NCBI GenBank assembly: GCA_038843015.1
Contig: JAWBSH010000003.1
Location: 133,343 to 197,342, forward strand
Length of the DNA: 64,000 bases
Reading direction: 5' to 3'
DNA from: Zestosphaera sp.
GTDB taxonomy: Archaea > Thermoproteota > Thermoprotei_A > Sulfolobales > NBVN01
Shown in pieces: positions 18,077 to 59,300 of this stretch. The position numbers were made by a program, and so were the translations under genes. Position 1 is the stretch's first letter, and each line of letters starts with the position of its first letter. The notes beneath the pieces are model-generated. The model was given only the letters and a program-made list of their open reading frames with translations. It did not search any database and was not told the origin of the DNA.

Positions 18077-18165
18077 TTACTAGACCTAAGGATATTGCTT
18101 AACTCAGAGTTATAACTTGTTATACTAAACTTATATTGGTGATGACGCGGGACTGGATGATTTAG

Positions 18166-19158
18166 ATGATTAGTAGCGAACCGTCTGAGGATAGGAGTTT
18201 TCTAGACCATGACTTAGTAGTTGACCGAGATAAGAGGATATATCTAGTCGTCGGAAACACTCACCCTAACGGCTTAGTAGTTGCTTACCTTAAGTACGTC
18301 CCTTCAAAAAAACCCACTATGTGGGGTAAGGGAGGTACTTACTATGAGAGGATTCTTAGAGAATACAGCGTTGAGGAGGTTTTACGAGTTTCTTCGGAAG
18401 TAGGGGCACAGTTTTATGACCCGACACTAGGGGTTTCTATACCTGTAGTCAAGACCTCGGAAGTTAAGGAATGGCTTAAGCCGGAAGAAAAGCTAGAGAG
18501 ATTAAGGAGACGTGCTGATGATCTTATTGAGTTAGTTAGTGTTGAAGTGTCAGACATTATTAGCGACCTCACTGGATTGAGTGCCGGTAGTATGGGTGTT
18601 ACAGGATCTGTTCTCGCAGGGATTCACGGCCCTCACTCAGACGTAGACCTAGTTATTTACGGTTGTAGAGAGGCTTTAGAATTTGTTCAAGCAAGTCTAG
18701 AGATAGGTAAGTTACCTGAGGAAAAAATCGCGGCTAAGGTCTTAGAAAATTCTAGAGTGTTGGGAATAGAGCCTGAAATGTACGTCAGGATAATCCCGCC
18801 TTATAAGTTCACGTGTTTTAAAGGGGTGCCAATAACCTTCGCGTTCGTTGAGAAGAGGAACTACAGGTATGGTGAGTTAGTTTTAAGACCTCTCAAGCCT
18901 GTAAGCCTTGTAGTCGAGGTTATCGGTGGAGACTGTAGGTCTCTTTTTTACCCCTCAAGAACTCGAGTTGACAGGGTTCTTGAGGGGCCTAGAGTTAGGG
19001 AAGTGATTAGCTACGAGGCGGAATACAACTACCTCCTGTATAGAGGAGGACTATTAAAGATTTCCGGAATGCTTGAGGAATCAATGCCGGATAGCGAATA
19101 CTACGTGGTTGTTGGCGGGAGAGAGAATAAGGGTTACGTGGTGCCGTACGGGGTCTAA
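18166..19158 (+). CDS. predicted nucleotidyltransferase (Pol-beta superfamily), archaeal conserved
   Basis: The G-S-x10-D-V-D signature (TGSVLAGIHGPHSDVDLVIYG) is present. Flanking domains are not recognisable by eye. Confidence 0.5.
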   Translation: MISSEPSEDRSFLDHDLVVDRDKRIYLVVGNTHPNGLVVAYLKYVPSKKPTMWGKGGTYYERILREYSVEEVLRVSSEVGAQFYDPTLGVSIPVVKTSEVKEWLKPEEKLERLRRRADDLIELVSVEVSDIISDLTGLSAGSMGVTGSVLAGIHGPHSDVDLVIYGCREALEFVQASLEIGKLPEEKIAAKVLENSRVLGIEPEMYVRIIPPYKFTCFKGVPITFAFVEKRNYRYGELVLRPLKPVSLVVEVIGGDCRSLFYPSRTRVDRVLEGPRVREVISYEAEYNYLLYRGGLLKISGMLEESMPDSEYYVVVGGRENKGYVVPYGV

Positions 19159-27953: not shown

Positions 27954-28240
27954 AAGACTGTTTGTATGTTGTTTAGTTTTGGTTTTTCTGGTTATTTGGG
28001 TTATTTATGTGGGTTTCGGGAGCTGACGTAAAGGTATATAAGCATCCACGTGTTTTAATAGCTGGGAGCCGATGAGCTGATGAGCCGTTGGCGAGGGACG
28101 AGGCTCTGTGAACCGCTCTTCACCGATGGCTCTGGAGACCCCTACGACACCCCTGGAACCGTAGGCAGGGAGAAAAAAGATAAACAGGTGGGATGAACCC
28201 GTACCCAGAAAAACCAAAACAACTAAAACAACCAGAAAAC
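27954..28240 (+). ncRNA. GC-rich structured intergenic element, copy A (unclassified RNA family)
   Basis: AAGACTGT leader. A perfect 15-bp long-range helix (27977-27991 with 28205-28219) encloses a GC-rich core containing nested hairpins. A 50-nt block is 43/50 identical to copy B with compensatory change. Confidence 0.55.
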
Positions 28241-28316
28241 TTAGCTAACGGATACGGGAAACCACTCAATACTCTAACTTATTTTTATTGTTCAGCGTTT
28301 TAGTTAGGTGGTCTGA

Positions 28317-35577: not shown

Positions 35578-36255
35578 TTGCCTTGTAAGGTAAGTGTGGC
35601 GGCTTTTGACTTAGACGGTGTCTTAATAAGGTGGAGATCTTCCTGGAGAGCTCTACACGAGTATTTCGGCTCTTTAAGTTTAATCGTTGAAAGTAATGAC
35701 GCCGAGAAATTCTTGAGAGGCGAAATAACTTATGAGGAATGGATGAGGAGAGATTTAGAAGCTATAATCAAAGCTCTTGGAAAGCCCCCAACTAGAGAAG
35801 AAATAATTAAAGCATTCTCTAGGTATGAGCTAGTTGACGGTGCCAAAGACTTAATCAACTTCTTGAAAGAGAGAGGAGTCTACACCCTCATCGTTAGTGG
35901 GGGGATTGACTTACTAGCTGAGATTATAAAGAGAGAGCTAGGTGTAGACGCGGCATTCGCTAACAGGCTAGTCTTTGACGAGAAGGGATACCTAATACCG
36001 AGAGGTATTGAAGTAGTTAATCCTCTCAAAAAAGGAGAACTGTTGAAGAAGTTATCAATACAGCTTAGAGTACCACTTAGTGAATTTATGTATGTAGGAG
36101 ACACTGAATGGGATTTTGAGGCTTTAAACCTTGTTGGGTATCCCGTCCTCCTCAACTACGGCGACGTAAAGCCTTCAATAGAGTCTAAATACATTATAGT
36201 CAACACCTTATATGAGGTAATAGAGTTTCTCACGAAATGCTTTAACCGTAGTTAA
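35578..36255 (+). CDS. HAD-superfamily phosphatase (phosphoserine phosphatase-like)
   Basis: FDLDGVL motif I, VSGG motif II and GDTEWD motif IV. Confidence 0.7.
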   Translation: MPCKVSVAAFDLDGVLIRWRSSWRALHEYFGSLSLIVESNDAEKFLRGEITYEEWMRRDLEAIIKALGKPPTREEIIKAFSRYELVDGAKDLINFLKERGVYTLIVSGGIDLLAEIIKRELGVDAAFANRLVFDEKGYLIPRGIEVVNPLKKGELLKKLSIQLRVPLSEFMYVGDTEWDFEALNLVGYPVLLNYGDVKPSIESKYIIVNTLYEVIEFLTKCFNRS

Positions 36256-36261
36256 GAACTC

Positions 36262-36548
36262 TTTGAGGGGGTTCGGGTTTCATGCTGTTTGATATCGACC
36301 CTTGGCTTCATTGACCTCAAGGCGCCTTTCATCGGAGACCTTATCATTGGTCTCTACTCTTTCAGGGTAACCCCAACTCGTAGCCCCTCACCAGTTTCAC
36401 GACTGCGGAGAAACCCCCACATACTGGCTTTAGACGCCCCACCCACTCGAGTCTTCACCACACACCCACATCGTGAGCGAGCTCAACCCACAATAAAGCA
36501 ACTTACATCAAACCCCTTACAAACCTTTACAAAACACAAAACAGTTGC
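36262..36548 (-). ncRNA. GC-rich structured intergenic element, copy C (same family as A/B/D)
   Basis: The reverse complement starts GCAACTGTTTTGTGTTTTGTAAAGGTTTGTAAGGGG, homologous to the copy D leader. The closing helix GGGGUUUG/CGAACCCC contains a G.U pair only on the minus-strand reading. Confidence 0.5.
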
Positions 36549-36585
36549 ACTAGGCAAGGCCAGTAATTCAGTGTAGACTACAATA

Positions 36586-37539
36586 TTATGATGTTTGTGA
36601 TGCGTATCTATTTATCTCTTCTTCAAGTATCTCTACCAGTCTTTGAGGCACTTCTTCAGGTCCTCTTGATGTCTGGAGTAGTAGCTCTAGAGCTGACTTA
36701 ATTCTTTCTTTAAGTGTTTCATCAAGTAGACTAAACTTATAGATTTGTTCTTGGACTAGGTGACTAAACTCTACACGAGCTCTCTCAGCTTGAAGTGGTA
36801 GCCCCCAACTCCTAGAGTAGAAGTATACGTACGCGATTAAGGTTAAGTCAACGAGATATGAGAAATCTACATGTTTAATCACTTCTTTCAAGAAAGAATT
36901 GAAGTAAATCGTTAAGAACTTCACGTAGTTCTTCAGAGAGACTACTAACGACGTTACACTTCTTCTTTCTATGGAACTCGTAAATGTCTTCACGTATCTT
37001 GATAGCATCTCACTAAGGTCGTTCATTTTTAACGAGGAGAGCGTGTCGTTGAAGTCTTGTAGCCTCTCGATTAGCTCCTTGTAAAAACCCCATTGAGGGA
37101 TATTGCCTTTAGTGAGTGATTGAAGAATTCTGAAAGCTGGTAAAACTAGGAAAACGTAGTTATGTAGATTCCTCTCAAGGAGGTCTCTAATGATTTGCTG
37201 TTCTCTCATGAAGTAGTAGAGAAACATGAACTGCTCTACATCTTTTTTTACTAGCTCATTAATAGCTATCCTTATTACGTCACCCTCTACAGTCTTTATT
37301 TCGAGTCCTTCGCTGGGGAGTCTTACCATCTCTCTCACACTCTTGAGAGGTATTCTCTTTATCTCGCCTAGCATCTCAAGCTTTTCTACTATTAATGAAG
37401 TGTCGCTAGTTCTCACGACACATTTGTACTCTATTTTGTTTTCATAGCATCTAGTAGACAACCTTAACTCCCTCCCTCCTTCAGACGTATTACGCCTTCG
37501 TAAACTTCTATGTCGCTTCTGCTCATTAAGAGCACCCAA
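36586..37539 (-). CDS. hypothetical protein (third gene of orphan operon); small beta-rich N-domain plus helical domain
   Basis: No recognisable motif. The probable real start is the TTG at 37461, 2 nt after the upstream stop and preceded by GGAGGGAGGGAG. The listed ATG at 37539 would overlap the upstream gene by 76 nt. Confidence 0.5.
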   Translation of the reverse strand: MGALNEQKRHRSLRRRNTSEGGRELRLSTRCYENKIEYKCVVRTSDTSLIVEKLEMLGEIKRIPLKSVREMVRLPSEGLEIKTVEGDVIRIAINELVKKDVEQFMFLYYFMREQQIIRDLLERNLHNYVFLVLPAFRILQSLTKGNIPQWGFYKELIERLQDFNDTLSSLKMNDLSEMLSRYVKTFTSSIERRSVTSLVVSLKNYVKFLTIYFNSFLKEVIKHVDFSYLVDLTLIAYVYFYSRSWGLPLQAERARVEFSHLVQEQIYKFSLLDETLKERIKSALELLLQTSRGPEEVPQRLVEILEEEINRYASQTS

Positions 37540-39668
37540 ATAAGCTGTACTGAGACCTCTGTAGTGAAGGGCAGCTCATTAACGTTGATGGATTTTTTCT
37601 CTGCGAGTTCCTGCAGTATGTAGTCACCGAATAGAGTCAGGTGTTTAGAAAGGTTGTTGAGGACTGCTAACCTTTCTAGAGTTAATGAAGTGTTTTCAAG
37701 TACTGTAGGTAATTCAGCAAGTAAGTTTTCAAAACCTTCCATGAGGTTTGCGGGAGACCGGATAGCGTCTCTGCTGAGCTTGGACCTAACAAGGTCTATA
37801 TTCCTCTTCATTCTTCCCAACAACATGTCTTCTATCTCCACGTCCCCTCCGTAAACAGCTTTTATTTTTAGGCTTACTTTCTCCACGTCCGTGATTAACG
37901 TGTTAATTAACTCGTCTATGATGGTGAGTAAGTTGTTGTACAAGATAGAATATCTTCTCAGGTAAGAAATCACTTCTAACTCACTCACTATTCCGGGGAT
38001 CTCGTCTAGCTCGTTATACAGTTTCTCTAAGACTGCTGAAGCTTCAAGTCCTTCTAGAGGCTTCTTCTTTAATTTCCTCACCTTGTCAGTAACTAGTCCT
38101 TTGGCTTGTATCAACCTATTATGTAGTTCCCTAAGCTTAGGTAGGGTTACGCTGATCATGTTATCATAGCTTTTTAGCATGAAGTATATATCTTCTAATA
38201 AAGATTTGCTAGACATGCAGTCTATCTTCTCTATTTTCTCAGTCTCTATAGGCGTTACAGACAATTGTTCTGACACGCTTATGTAAGTGTTTAGGACTAG
38301 GTTCTTAAGCACGGTGCAGCTCTCTCTCAATGTATTAGCTACTGAACCCACGTACTGAGGTATCTTATCAACTCTCTCTATCTCCTGAAATCTCTGAGCT
38401 CCTTCTCTGAGGCGGTCTCCGTAAGGAGTTGCTAAGACTAAAGCTACTACCTTCGAGTAGGTGATCAGTGCGTGAGCATACATAGACTTCATATGATCTG
38501 AGAGCTCAATCAACTGTTTTTCAGCATTCTTAAGAACGTCACTAACTAGCTGGAGCCTGCTTACGGGAACAAGCTTCTTTAAAATAATGGCTTTAGACAT
38601 CTCTAAGCTCCCCTTTATTACATTCAGTTTATTCTCGACTTCTTTAAGCGCGTCTTCAGACCATAAACCAGTCTTGCCCACTTCGTTATAGACTGTCGTG
38701 AGACTCTGCACCTCGCGTTCTAAGGCCCCCAGAACGGAACTCAAGTGTCTTCTTTTCTCTGACATTATTCTCAGATAAGCTACTGTCGCTGTAACAGAAG
38801 AGATTATTACGGCTACTAAGAAGGCTGAAGTCAAGTTATACTCTAAGTACCGGTAGAAAGGCTCTAGAAAAATTACAGACATAGAGATATAGAAAAGCCC
38901 GACAAACGTTAAGGAAGATATGAAGTATCTTATGACGATTATAGCTAAGTTGACTGTCTCCCTACCTACTAAGCTGTAAGATATTATGTTTATGAAGGAA
39001 GCTACAGTAAAGCTTATCAAGAGAGATACGTAGACTTGTGTGAACTCTGTTGCTGTGCCTATACTCATGTGAGGAACTCCTGTGAGGTCAGGTAACACGT
39101 AATAAAGACCTAAGAAGATTAGGAGCGAGAACATGAGGCTCATAATCCCTGAGAAATATGTTTTGAAGTTCTTGACAGTAACGACAGAGAGTGAGAGTAA
39201 CCATATAAACTCATAGACGCTGAGGCTAACCCCCCATAAGCCGTCTGTCAGAGCAAACGTAACGAAAAAGAATATAGGCAGGTGGACGCTCAACTCCCAA
39301 ATATTCAGTTTCGAGACTAGATTCCACGCAACCACAGCCGATAATAGGAGTGTTGAGAATAGCACGTAGAGACTCCCTAGCAACGGCAGCTTAATGCTGG
39401 GTAGTGAGAAAACTACGTTGAGGAGCAACATGTAGCTCACGAAGAGAGGCGAGAAAGCCAGCGAGTCATAGTAGGGTAAGTCCCTAGGATATATTAGGGG
39501 GGCGAGCAAAGTCAAGGTTATTAAAGCGCCTGCGAGCGGAATCCCTATAGGTTCCTTCATTAGGCCTAGCGCATAATTAGTCAGTACGATCCATAGAGAG
39601 ATTATGAGTGATGCCCAAATAACTTCTAGTCTAGACTTCTTAGCCCCGTCTAACTCCTGCCTGATCAT
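37464..39668 (-). CDS. hypothetical polytopic membrane protein (~10 TM) with ~430 aa cytoplasmic all-helical domain
   Basis: The hydrophobic N-terminal ~300 aa is followed by a long Leu/Glu/Lys-rich helical region. No nucleotide-binding or catalytic motifs were seen. The start overlaps the upstream stop (TAATG). Confidence 0.55.
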   Translation of the reverse strand: MIRQELDGAKKSRLEVIWASLIISLWIVLTNYALGLMKEPIGIPLAGALITLTLLAPLIYPRDLPYYDSLAFSPLFVSYMLLLNVVFSLPSIKLPLLGSLYVLFSTLLLSAVVAWNLVSKLNIWELSVHLPIFFFVTFALTDGLWGVSLSVYEFIWLLSLSVVTVKNFKTYFSGIMSLMFSLLIFLGLYYVLPDLTGVPHMSIGTATEFTQVYVSLLISFTVASFINIISYSLVGRETVNLAIIVIRYFISSLTFVGLFYISMSVIFLEPFYRYLEYNLTSAFLVAVIISSVTATVAYLRIMSEKRRHLSSVLGALEREVQSLTTVYNEVGKTGLWSEDALKEVENKLNVIKGSLEMSKAIILKKLVPVSRLQLVSDVLKNAEKQLIELSDHMKSMYAHALITYSKVVALVLATPYGDRLREGAQRFQEIERVDKIPQYVGSVANTLRESCTVLKNLVLNTYISVSEQLSVTPIETEKIEKIDCMSSKSLLEDIYFMLKSYDNMISVTLPKLRELHNRLIQAKGLVTDKVRKLKKKPLEGLEASAVLEKLYNELDEIPGIVSELEVISYLRRYSILYNNLLTIIDELINTLITDVEKVSLKIKAVYGGDVEIEDMLLGRMKRNIDLVRSKLSRDAIRSPANLMEGFENLLAELPTVLENTSLTLERLAVLNNLSKHLTLFGDYILQELAEKKSINVNELPFTTEVSVQLIWVLLMSRSDIEVYEGVIRLKEGGS

Positions 39669-40744
39669 TAAGACCCCCTCTCCGTCGTAGTCAGGAACTC
39701 TCTAGTCAGCTTCATTAAAGGAATCAATACTCTAAGGTCTTTTTCTTCCTCGCTTAGTATTGATGGAGCGTCCCAAACATCTTTTGACAACTTTATTATC
39801 AAGTCATCACTACTCTCACTAATAAAAATACGCACATAGTCTTCTGTCGTAGTTTTAGGAGTAAATGTTTTGTAGACTGCCCACCCACAGACCTTAACCA
39901 TTTCATTGATATTGACTTGATTTAGTAATTCCGCGTTGCCTTCTAGGTACGCGTATCCCATACTCCCAGCAAATATGGTTCCCCATGTAAGAAACTTAGC
40001 TAGTTGAGAAGCTCCAGCTAGGTTCTTTATTAGTAGTGAAGCCTCCTCGAGACTCAATAACGATACGAAGTATAAGTGTCTCATCTCTCTAGTGTCGGTT
40101 AGTAGGATTTCCTTGCCTAAGTTATCTGAATAAAGTCTTAAACCCCACCTAAGTAGTTCCTCAACTCCTTGAGGACTGAGATATCTATAGAATCTGTCAA
40201 TCCTTAGTACACTCACCCTATTAACTAGTCTTTCTTTCAAGACTTTAGCTAAAAACGTAACTAGGTTAAATCTATTAATGAGAGTTAGCTCTCTATCTAT
40301 TACGATCAAGGCTTCCGCCCTGCTAGCACTACTCTTGAGAGACCTGAAAACCTCAAGAGTCTTGTAAGCTACAGATAATTCCTTAGCTTGAACTCTAGAT
40401 ACCAGGAATAACTCCTCTACATCCTCAGTTATTAATGAGGGAAGAACACTCTCTTCGAAAGTTCCTTCTTGAGAAACTCCTTCTTTTAAGTAGCTTACCC
40501 ACATGCTATACTTATACGAGTCTTCAGAAGGTCTTGAAAGCACGTAACTATTAGGTTTAAAGAACTCTAGAGACTTTTCAGACCCTTCCTTAATTCTAAT
40601 AATTAGGTAACCTCTACTAACTAACGCCTCGCTTAAAATGTGTTCAATAAGTTGTGGCGCCATAATCACGGCTAACTTATTATGGTCTATGAAATCAAGA
40701 GAGCCCATAAAGCTCTCAAATATGTTCACAGACCATATACTCAC
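39668..40744 (-). CDS. hypothetical protein (first gene of orphan operon)
   Basis: 358 aa soluble protein with no recognisable motif. Coding is supported by its length and by coupling to the next gene. Confidence 0.5.
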   Translation of the reverse strand: MSIWSVNIFESFMGSLDFIDHNKLAVIMAPQLIEHILSEALVSRGYLIIRIKEGSEKSLEFFKPNSYVLSRPSEDSYKYSMWVSYLKEGVSQEGTFEESVLPSLITEDVEELFLVSRVQAKELSVAYKTLEVFRSLKSSASRAEALIVIDRELTLINRFNLVTFLAKVLKERLVNRVSVLRIDRFYRYLSPQGVEELLRWGLRLYSDNLGKEILLTDTREMRHLYFVSLLSLEEASLLIKNLAGASQLAKFLTWGTIFAGSMGYAYLEGNAELLNQVNINEMVKVCGWAVYKTFTPKTTTEDYVRIFISESSDDLIIKLSKDVWDAPSILSEEEKDLRVLIPLMKLTREFLTTTERGS

Positions 40745-46803: not shown

Positions 46804-47116
46804 AAGACTGTCTATAGGTTGTTTTGGTTGTTTCTATGGATTCCGAGAATTATCTAGGATATAAATGATTAAGTGTTTGAGTGTTTTTGGAGTCTGTGAG
46901 CTGATGAGTCGTTGGTAAGGGACGAGACTCTGTGAATCACTCTTCGCTGTAGGAGTTGGGTGAACTGCTGGCGGTAGCTGGAGACGTGCTCTTGCAGGCG
47001 GGGTGGGAGAAGAATAAGCTGTCGAGAAGTAGAGGGCTGGGAGGCTGAATACGAAATAACATGAAAACCTGTGAAGAGCCGTTCACCGAGAAACGACTTT
47101 AGCAAAACACTTGTTT
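46804..47116 (+). ncRNA. GC-rich structured intergenic element, copy B (same family as A)
   Basis: AAGACTGT leader 6 nt after the MATE stop. The core block at 46898-46947 is 43/50 identical to 28074-28123, with a C:G to U:A compensatory change. 5'/3' closing complementarity runs GTGTTTT...AGTC with GACT...AAAACAC. Confidence 0.55.
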
Positions 47117-58521: not shown

Positions 58522-58647
58522 TTTTCGCATAACTGAGGTAGCGTCAAGACAAGAATATAAAAAGAGTTTAGAAATTCTAGCCACGTATTTTTAAGCTCAA
58601 GTAGTTCAAAACCTCTTTTTCTTGAAGAGCTTAAAACTACTGTTAGG

Positions 58648-58721
58648 TGGGGCCGCGGGGATTTGAACCCCGGACCACGGGGACCCAAGCCCCGCATTCT
58701 ACCAAGCTAAACTACGGCCCC
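58648..58721 (-). tRNA. tRNA-Pro (anticodon UGG)
   Basis: The reverse complement folds as a 74-nt cloverleaf. The acceptor stem is GGGGCCG/CGGCCCC. The anticodon stem CGGGG/CCCCG carries the loop CUUGGGU. The T arm is CGGGG-UUCAAAU-CCCCG. The discriminator is A, there is no intron, and CCA is not encoded. Confidence 0.9.
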
Positions 58722-59054
58722 CACCTAACAAAACTAGAAACCCAAATATATAAAGCTAATCACAACAAGTCAAACTTCTTAAGTCTTTAAGATAAACTAT
58801 CAAGAGATAAACCTGCTAACAACCTCCAAGTTTAAGTCTTAGTTTTCTCCTAATCATCCGCTCAAGACTCAGCAGTCAAGAAGACTATAAAACTACTTTA
58901 TTATAGTAAAGTGAATAAAACTAAACTTATGGTCTTAGTTTCTCGAAAATGTCTCAATCTTTAGGAGTTGTAAGTATTAAAAATAATTGCTGGTTGCGAA
59001 TTGTAAGGAGCTAAAATGCTTGTTTTCAGATAGGGCATATTTTAAGTAGGGTTC

Positions 59055-59300
59055 ACAACTGTTTTAGTGTGTTAGGTTTATAAAGGTTTTTGTAGGATTT
59101 TTTTCATGATGATGAGAGATACTTCAAGCCACCTGAAGATGGAACTAGATGTGAGCCCCGTGCCGTTGGGCTTGAAGGGTGCTCATGACCCCCGCGTGGA
59201 GTGGCTAGTAGCCACAGTGAATCGCGGGGTAGAGGCACAACCCGTCCTAGAAAAACCTAGGACGGGAAACGGTAATCTCTGAGAGCTTCTGAAGTGCTAG
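59055..59300 (+). ncRNA. GC-rich structured intergenic element, copy D (leader homologous to C; box C/D-like termini)
   Basis: Leader ACAACTGTTTTAGTGTGTTAGG. The 5' AUGAUGAGAGAU (59109-20) pairs through AGAGAU/AUCUCU with the 3' AUCUCUGAGAG (59275-85). Internal helices are perfect: 7 bp at 59190-96/59223-29 and 10 bp at 59241-50/59257-66. Confidence 0.55.
59077..59084 (+). promoter_or_regulatory. candidate archaeal TATA box (TTTATAAA) for element D
   Basis: It matches the archaeal TATA consensus and lies about 22-28 nt upstream of the AUGAUGAUGAG 5' motif of element D. Confidence 0.35.

Follow-up and report, generated by a model that had tools for sequence, protein, structure and literature searches.

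A strain-variable noncoding insertion beside an orphan archaeal operon and its possible origin from a TnpB-associated element

A G-rich stretch of DNA separates two convergent genes in the archaeal genome examined here. Is it an RNA that belongs to the neighboring operon, a copy of other islands in the same region, or a mobile element? We addressed this question in a 64-kb window, by which we mean the whole stretch of DNA that was analyzed. The window derives from a hot-spring archaeal MAG, and identical proteins are encoded in GCA_038861255.1 and related assemblies. The names carried by its relatives are Desulfurococcaceae, Zestosphaera, and Ignisphaera. The initial annotation treated the stretch as element C of a four-member family (A to D) and suggested that it is an RNA of the operon next to it.

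Position, strain variation, and synteny of element C

The features of the locus that are needed for the argument are the following.

36262-36548, minus strand: element C, a G-rich island inside a 330-nt gap between convergent genes
35578-36255, plus strand: HAD hydrolase gene, convergent neighbor of C
36586-40744, minus strand: three-gene orphan operon, with products of ~291-317, 734, and 358 aa
36586-37539, minus strand: last gene of the orphan operon, the other convergent neighbor of C
36543-36546, minus strand: AACT tetranucleotide, pre-existing and target-like, directly 5' of the insertion
36419-36542, minus strand: 5' module of C, a leader followed by a G-rich stretch, with no homolog
36267-36418, minus strand: 3' module of C, a candidate structured RNA domain of ~150 nt with a homolog in contig L011
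36253-36266, minus strand: right-hand flank of C, CTCAAAGAGTTC plus TTA, which aligns with the L005/L006 spacer and the HAD stop codon
36509-36516, minus strand: GGGGUUUG, 5' strand of a proposed terminal helix, altered in all four other strains
36289-36576, plus strand: ORF of 95 aa, a compositional artefact

Read on the minus strand, the letters of 36262-36548 agree with those quoted previously, and the earlier description of C as GC-rich and as starting about 38 nt past the stop codon of the 36586 gene was borne out: GC content is 0.54-0.56 in C versus 0.43 in the whole window, and C begins 37-43 nt past that stop. The minus strand is strongly G-skewed (G 0.33, C 0.17). The 5' module opens with a T/G-rich leader, GTTTTGTGTTTTGTAAAGGTTTGTAAGG, which holds a degenerate TATA-like TTTTGTAAA at 36534-36526, and all homolog searches with these ~125 nt of leader and G-rich stretch came back empty. 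At the ends of the element we found only imperfect inverted repeats of 10-13 nt, with no subterminal hairpins or long inverted repeats.

Element C occurs in four other strains of the species (L001-L004) at 97.6-98.6% identity. Between 1.7 and 2.8% of its positions differ from those strains, compared to 0-0.6% in ~6.3 kb of flanking genes, and its polymorphism is thus 3-13 times the flanking rate; on this comparison, C is evolving faster than even the surrounding synonymous sites. Most of the differences are transitions, to which two 1-nt indels are added. Six of the 12 polymorphisms lie in the 5' module (36512, 36509, 36479, 36459, 36435, and 36434), and 77 bases of C (36366-36290) are invariant across the five strains. 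The high divergence may be a result of decay, of conversion between copies elsewhere in the genome, or of assemblies made from mixed populations. The high variability among strains suggests that C may be decaying.

We compared the site of C with the corresponding sites of relatives. The three operon proteins had no match in Pfam, NCBIfam, or PADLOC. Homologs of the 734-aa protein share 98, 85, 75, 72, 70, and 48% identity with it, and the order operon -> HAD <- iorB <- iorA is retained in all of the relatives' contigs that we retrieved. Gene order within the operon is fixed in at least six related lineages (48-98% identity), where the operon always lies between a class-V aminotransferase (or peptidase) gene and the HAD/ior genes. 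The gap between the operon and the HAD gene varies as follows.

Window: 330 nt
L005 (734-aa homolog 85% identical): 42 nt
L006 (734-aa homolog 75% identical): 54 nt
L007 and L008 (734-aa homolog 70% identical): 357 nt, different sequence, opposite orientation
L009 (734-aa homolog 48% identical): 4 nt

This comparison separates C from the operon to which the initial annotation had tied it. A 3'-UTR-derived or co-transcribed RNA that functionally belongs to the operon would fit the location of C on the operon's strand, with its start ~40 nt past the stop codon. However, the operon is kept without C in L005, L006, and L009, it is followed in L007 and L008 by a different and oppositely oriented element, and the sole homolog of C comes after unrelated genes. 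We therefore consider an operon RNA very improbable. The absence of C beside the operons of relatives points to a lineage-specific gain and not to a companion of the operon, and with the outgroup L009 lacking C as well, parsimony favors a gain in the lineage of this species.

The sequence of the insertion site is legible in two of the empty sites (n = 2). Both hold AACT exactly where C starts (ggcAACTcactcg in L005, cataACTaccag in L006), and past the insertion point the flank resumes at CTCAAAGAG. In comparison with L005 and L006, no direct repeat of the kind left by a target-site duplication brackets C. Among more than 40 TnpB-related elements, the RNA-sense 5' junctions read GACT/RTYT or GGCT/GTTT (a slash marks the junction), and the RACT/GT junction of C matches the GACT/RTYT type found in that family. 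With a length of only 4 nt, the AACT common to the two empty sites could have been inherited as part of the flank instead of being a recognized target.

Coding potential and RNA structure

The 95-aa plus-strand frame had already been regarded as an artefact of composition, and our results support that view. The frame is uninterrupted in the window and in strain L001, but two single-base indels, 135 nt apart, frameshift it and introduce stop codons in L002-L004 (three of the four other strains). Its Pro/Thr/Arg-rich product matches no Pfam family, and a search of 5.8e9 proteins with a cut-off as loose as E <= 10 gave no homolog; that the frame is a protein gene is next to impossible. Neither the short ORFs on the minus strand nor the peptide frames of C and of its L011 counterpart had a match in NCBIfam, and the region of C is noncoding. 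A search of 1.84e9 proteins with a 42-aa frame of C returned a single 27-residue match within a 1217-aa protein (E = 9e-6), which we judged to be compositional.

The sole homolog of C lies in one other Thermoproteota MAG (L011 2098-1930, 65% identity, nhmmer E = 1.1e-8), where it comes after a HEPN-MNT gene pair and is not near a transposase. It covers the 3' ~150 nt of C (36418-36267). In a consensus fold of the five C alleles and L011, this 3' module is closed by a helix between GGGGGUUU (36418-36411) and GAACCCCC (36274-36267). The same helix reads UGAAGUUU/GAACUUCG in L011, with three compensatory changes that maintain 8/8 pairs. Altogether, C and L011 differ by 7 compensatory pairs, compared to 1.6 in shuffles and 0-3 in slid controls, a count obtained from one divergent homolog and with a structure derived from the same sequences. 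The central GAGACC hairpin of the module is not conserved in L011, and folding of the whole of C showed no excess stability over shuffles (z = 0.09 and 0.04), a negative that applies to either strand. We take these results as moderate evidence that the 3' half of C behaves as a structured RNA, the grade being set by the single divergent sequence and by the use of the same data for the structure. There are also hints of a coding ancestry for the 3' module, namely a weak three-base periodicity in the mismatches between C and L011 (9/15/23 by phase, chi-square P ~0.04) and an open 64-codon frame across the homologous region of L011.

The initial annotation had proposed a different helix, which would join the two ends of the element. 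Its strands, GGGGUUUG (36516-36509) and CGAACCCC (36275-36268), can indeed pair, with one U.G. The 5' strand is, however, variable among strains (U36512G in one strain, G36509 deleted in three) and has no counterpart in L011. An internal partner, GGGGGUUU at 36418-36411, competes with GGGGUUUG for the same 3' strand, and the pairing of GGGGGUUU is the one with cross-species support. The choice of the minus, G-rich strand as the RNA strand is plausible, and several U.G and G.U pairs favor it. The several GAUGA motifs that had been reported reduce to one, and UGAA occurs 6 times versus 2.7 expected (P = 0.04); the motif basis for K-turns in C is thin.

Neighboring TnpB-related elements and their relation to C

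Four further insertions besides C enter the comparison from the window and from L007, and a fifth is listed with them.

27956-28268 (approximate), plus strand: element A, a gene-less TnpB-related IS derivative
46809-47095 (approximate), plus strand: element B, a gene-less TnpB-related IS derivative
59055-59272, plus strand: element D, predicted omega-RNA end of a canonical TnpB element
L007 13093-13449, minus strand: L7a, a TnpB-element derivative at the C site, in opposite orientation to C
L007 8540-8890, plus strand: L7b, a G-rich insertion upstream of the operon, which starts CCTGTATTGTTTG and ends ...GAAACCCCACCCGCTCAC

The A and B elements are the only mutually similar islands within the window, and their sites are also empty in relatives. 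A scan with A/B blocks, using one genome per species, identified A-like elements in three Desulfurococcaceae/Thermoproteota MAGs (81-85% over ~310 nt). Both L012 and L014 have an A-type leader and core that are split by 1.19 kb, with an RHH gene and a 362-aa TnpB-related gene on the opposite strand, from which it follows that A arose from an insertion sequence by internal deletion. The complement of the A-type leader makes up the final 14 codons of the TnpB-related gene. Its protein scores 35.6 bits with TIGR01766 (cut-off 32) and 34 bits with guided_TnpB, and it has 353 homologs (Pfam PF27229, SSO2105_N), several of which are annotated as IS605 OrfB/TnpB-related. For comparison we assembled a set of 85 tnpB-like loci. 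Both B and L7a match ~230 nt directly upstream of, and antisense to, PF27229-type genes; for B, the upstream regions of two further tnpB-like genes match. The L7a element additionally retains 33 codons of a TnpB C-terminus (E = 1e-10) together with the upstream RNA core.

In an alignment of 35 cores, a conserved RNA of ~230 nt runs antisense to the tnpB-like gene and has a TATA box of its own ~30 nt upstream. In this A/B RNA, 94.7% of cells are paired versus 72.8% in shuffles, and the covariation score is 0.51, compared to 0.16 in shuffles and no more than 0.18 in slid controls. The RNA is assigned to the G-rich strand by two U.G pairs that are invariant. A canonical 411-aa TnpB gene of L014 carries the same 3' hairpin and CAACCAC tail at its own 3' end, and on the strength of this recurrence the A/B RNA may be an omega-type RNA that is encoded in divergent orientation to the nuclease gene. 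We found no description of this divergent arrangement in the literature that we searched.

Several other observations on this family are worth recording. The PF27229 TnpB relatives (L012 766-1854) retain the RuvC D-E-D motifs (FDLNSD, FEDL, LDKHTASAY) and have no CxxC zinc ribbon between YTS and the last RuvC motif; a small RHH gene precedes many of them. At L012 1851-1880 the inserted element supplies the last seven codons and the stop (..EDCLYVV*) of an alpha/beta-hydrolase-like neighbor, and the insertion has thus re-made the C-terminus of a host gene. Elements of the A type also carry an inverted repeat of ~30 nt (window 27976-27994 versus 28202-28220) between the leader, which is the complement of the tnpB 3' end, and the loop of the RNA 3' hairpin, so that the tail of the tnpB mRNA and the RNA loop carry nearly identical A/C-rich sequence. 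Rfam Hammerhead_3 scored 25.6 bits (gathering 48.5) on B at 46887-46933 of the plus strand, and the same block is present in A at ~28065-28110. We rejected a hammerhead ribozyme, as stem I is missing and GAGAC replaces GAAAC; the block is a conserved 5' domain of the A/B RNA (GAGYC..CUGAUGAG..hairpin..GAGGGACGAG). No hammerhead-type match was present in C.

Element D folds far above shuffles (z = -5.2). Its core matches L094 2795-2935 (homologous span noted as L094 2620-2935), starting within the C-terminal remnant of a canonical TnpB, and D and its L094 counterpart differ via compensatory changes. The L094 TnpB is frameshifted, with a remnant that corresponds to guided_TnpB positions 346-389 of 389 (E = 3e-9). 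Based on this homology to sequence overlapping the TnpB C-terminal end, D is best read as an omega-RNA relic. A TnpB origin is thus established for A, B, D, and L7a.

In the surroundings of D, a strain contig (L099, 5640-5840) follows the window at 99.94% identity as far as position 59271, where the D scaffold has its final base and the identity ceases; beyond the breakpoint, HMG-CoA_red_N and MFS genes stand in place of D and tRNA-Pro. Window positions 58646-59055 hold the tRNA-Pro gene (minus strand) and then ~330 nt of AT-rich noncoding DNA, followed by D. Together with the breakpoint at 59271, the tRNA-Pro and AT-rich stretch could represent the border of a segment that was integrated or rearranged. 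In the relative with 70% identity, the orphan operon is bracketed by two G-rich insertions, L7a and L7b; the latter had no match in any comparison made. The Rfam scan over the 64 kb gave a weak match to the box C/D sRNA sR20 at 18135-18190 on the plus strand (25.4 bits, gathering 44) and no other C/D sRNA.

The previous grouping of C with A, B, and D as sequence copies was contradicted by our searches. BLAST and nhmmer return C alone in the window, where no second copy of it was found, and the profile and covariance models were negative. Even with every filter disabled, a profile of 60+ A/B-type (TnpB-associated) RNA cores did not match C; the D-type covariance model had no hit in C, L011, or relatives, leader HMMs recovered seed sequences only, and C had no Rfam match at gathering or permissive thresholds. 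The likeness of the C and D leaders, on which the grouping partly relied, amounts to a shared CAACTGTTTT plus TAAAGGTTT; a D-type-leader HMM built without C misses C, and the 10-mer common to both leaders also occurs twice within genes. The 3' ends of A and B with which the end of C had been compared are not their ends, as the motif compared in A forms the 5' arm of a hairpin inside the element, and A continues to ...CAACCAC at 28268.

Searches beyond the window had the same outcome. No TnpB remnant was found in the six frames of C, with L7a and L094 detected as positive controls, and there was no C-like DNA at the 85 tnpB-like loci. Plasmid and phage collections (distant BLAST) and viral contigs held no homolog of C. 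A motif common to C and L011 had one match in viral contigs, which we attributed to chance. No exact 20-mer of C was matched in metagenome contigs, a collection that missed a known JGI contig too and is thus without this organism. What was proposed as one family is a collection of distinct relics of RNA-guided-nuclease transposons. For C itself, the links to TnpB elements are circumstantial and consist of the RACT/GT junction, the insertion without target duplication, and the occupation of the same gap by L7a.

Possible origins of element C

The interpretation that we favor, tentatively and at somewhat less than an even chance, is that C is a non-autonomous, gene-less (PATE/MITE-like) relic of an IS200/IS605-type, TnpB-associated element that carries an RNA module. 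It draws on the presence and absence of C at a syntenic site, the AACT junction, the presence of L7a in the same gap, the A, B, and D relics nearby, the L011 homolog with its 7 compensatory pairs, and the existence of documented PATEs. The evidence against it is that every direct test of membership was negative. We infer that C derives from a TnpB element, and that it would be transcribed and may still be working.

If C is such a relic, a noncoding insertion of ~275 bp would have entered the convergent gap between the operon and the HAD gene in the lineage of this species, directly 3' of AACT and without target duplication. Read on the minus strand, the element would start at its left end with a leader and a weakened TATA-like box, and the RNA module would follow, its 3' ~150 nt folding into a domain closed by GGGGGUUU/GAACCCCC and its end coinciding with the transposon boundary. 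By analogy to omega-RNAs, the transcript would run on into flanking DNA, and the right flank would be guide-encoding if C yields an omega-type RNA. A TnpB nuclease encoded elsewhere could then use this transcript to target the empty site (AACT plus flank), by which the element would be retained.

Gene-less IS200/IS605 derivatives (PATEs) that encode omega-RNAs have been documented (Meers et al., 2023, bioRxiv 10.1101/2023.03.14.532601). Like PATEs and MITE-like elements, C is ~0.3 kb long, has no protein gene, and is present or absent between close relatives; like PATEs, it is inserted beside a conserved short motif, shows no target duplication, and holds a candidate structured RNA whose end coincides with that of the element. 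Unlike PATEs, it has no full-length TnpA/TnpB parent with matching ends among the 85 tnpB-like loci, in the leader HMM search, or in plasmids, phages, and viral contigs. No subterminal palindromes were seen, and the RNA matches none of the omega-type RNAs that we modeled. With the omega-RNA or reRNA at the right ends of IS200/IS605 and IS607 elements, the type to which its neighbors A, B, and D belong, C shares a G-rich, candidate structured RNA at the transposon end and a closing helix by the 3' boundary. Canonical omega-RNAs overlap the tnpB 3' end, whereas C has no tnpB remnant. Compared to the SSO2105_N (PF27229) RNA of A and B, C has in common the genome, the intergenic insertion, a similar RACT/GT junction, a T/G-rich leader, and recurring AUGAA(N)CC motifs. 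It differs in having neither the GAUGAGCU-GAUGAG...GAGGGAC 5' domain and strong TATA box nor the long 3' hairpin with a CAACCAC or GAGAAACGG tail.

Alternatively, C or its 3' 150 nt could be an independent host gene for a small structured RNA, such as an RNP RNA of the K-turn/L7Ae type, a gene that is laterally acquired or turns over fast and is unrelated to transposons. We regard this as rather unlikely. It would account for a homolog with compensatory pairs in a different Thermoproteota MAG, for the invariance of 36366-36290 in five strains, for the modest enrichment of UGAA and AUGA motifs, and for the lack of a detectable tie between C and TnpB RNAs or proteins. Archaeal K-turn RNAs (box C/D and H/ACA sRNAs bound by L7Ae) are likewise GC-rich islands in the AT-rich genomes of hyperthermophiles and carry UGA-type motifs; C, however, has no C/D or C'/D' box arrangement, one GAUGA, and no Rfam match, and its length of ~150-280 nt far exceeds that of C/D sRNAs. 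A host gene is also harder to reconcile with the absence of C at the syntenic site in the three closest lineages, with a single homolog in a different context, with the lack of a thermodynamic signal, and with a polymorphism 3-13 times that of the flanks. There is no clear promoter, the degenerate TATA-like box lying 110 nt upstream of the conserved domain, and the other such islands nearby are all transposon relics.

It is unlikely that C is non-functional filler, i.e. the decayed remnant of an older insertion or small gene with no selection on an RNA. The divergence among strains, the two 1-nt indels, the folding z of ~0, and the hints of coding ancestry described above all agree with such decay. 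Seven compensatory pairs and an intact 8-bp closing helix at 65% identity would nevertheless be hard to explain without structural selection, and the 77-nt stretch is unchanged in five strains. Quite unlikely, in our estimate, is a bolder interpretation of the 3' ~150 nt of C (36418-36267) and their L011 counterpart as a new mobile, protein-less structured RNA gene of hyperthermophilic Thermoproteota, which would be either a transposon guide RNA served in trans or unrelated to TnpB.

Element C is not a conserved regulatory RNA of the orphan operon; it was inserted recently and is better annotated as a mobile-element relic or candidate RNA. With C read as the relic that we favor, four gene-less relics of RNA-guided-nuclease transposons would lie within 64 kb of this Desulfurococcaceae genome. 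The parent family of the PF27229 type, which has no zinc ribbon, carries a conserved structured RNA on the strand opposite to the nuclease gene and with its own TATA box. If the A/B-family RNA is a guide, such an arrangement would be unusual within the TnpB/Cas12 lineage and would supply thermostable RNA-guided nucleases, and orphan relics like C would be 'guide-only' passengers whose upkeep depends on nucleases encoded elsewhere.
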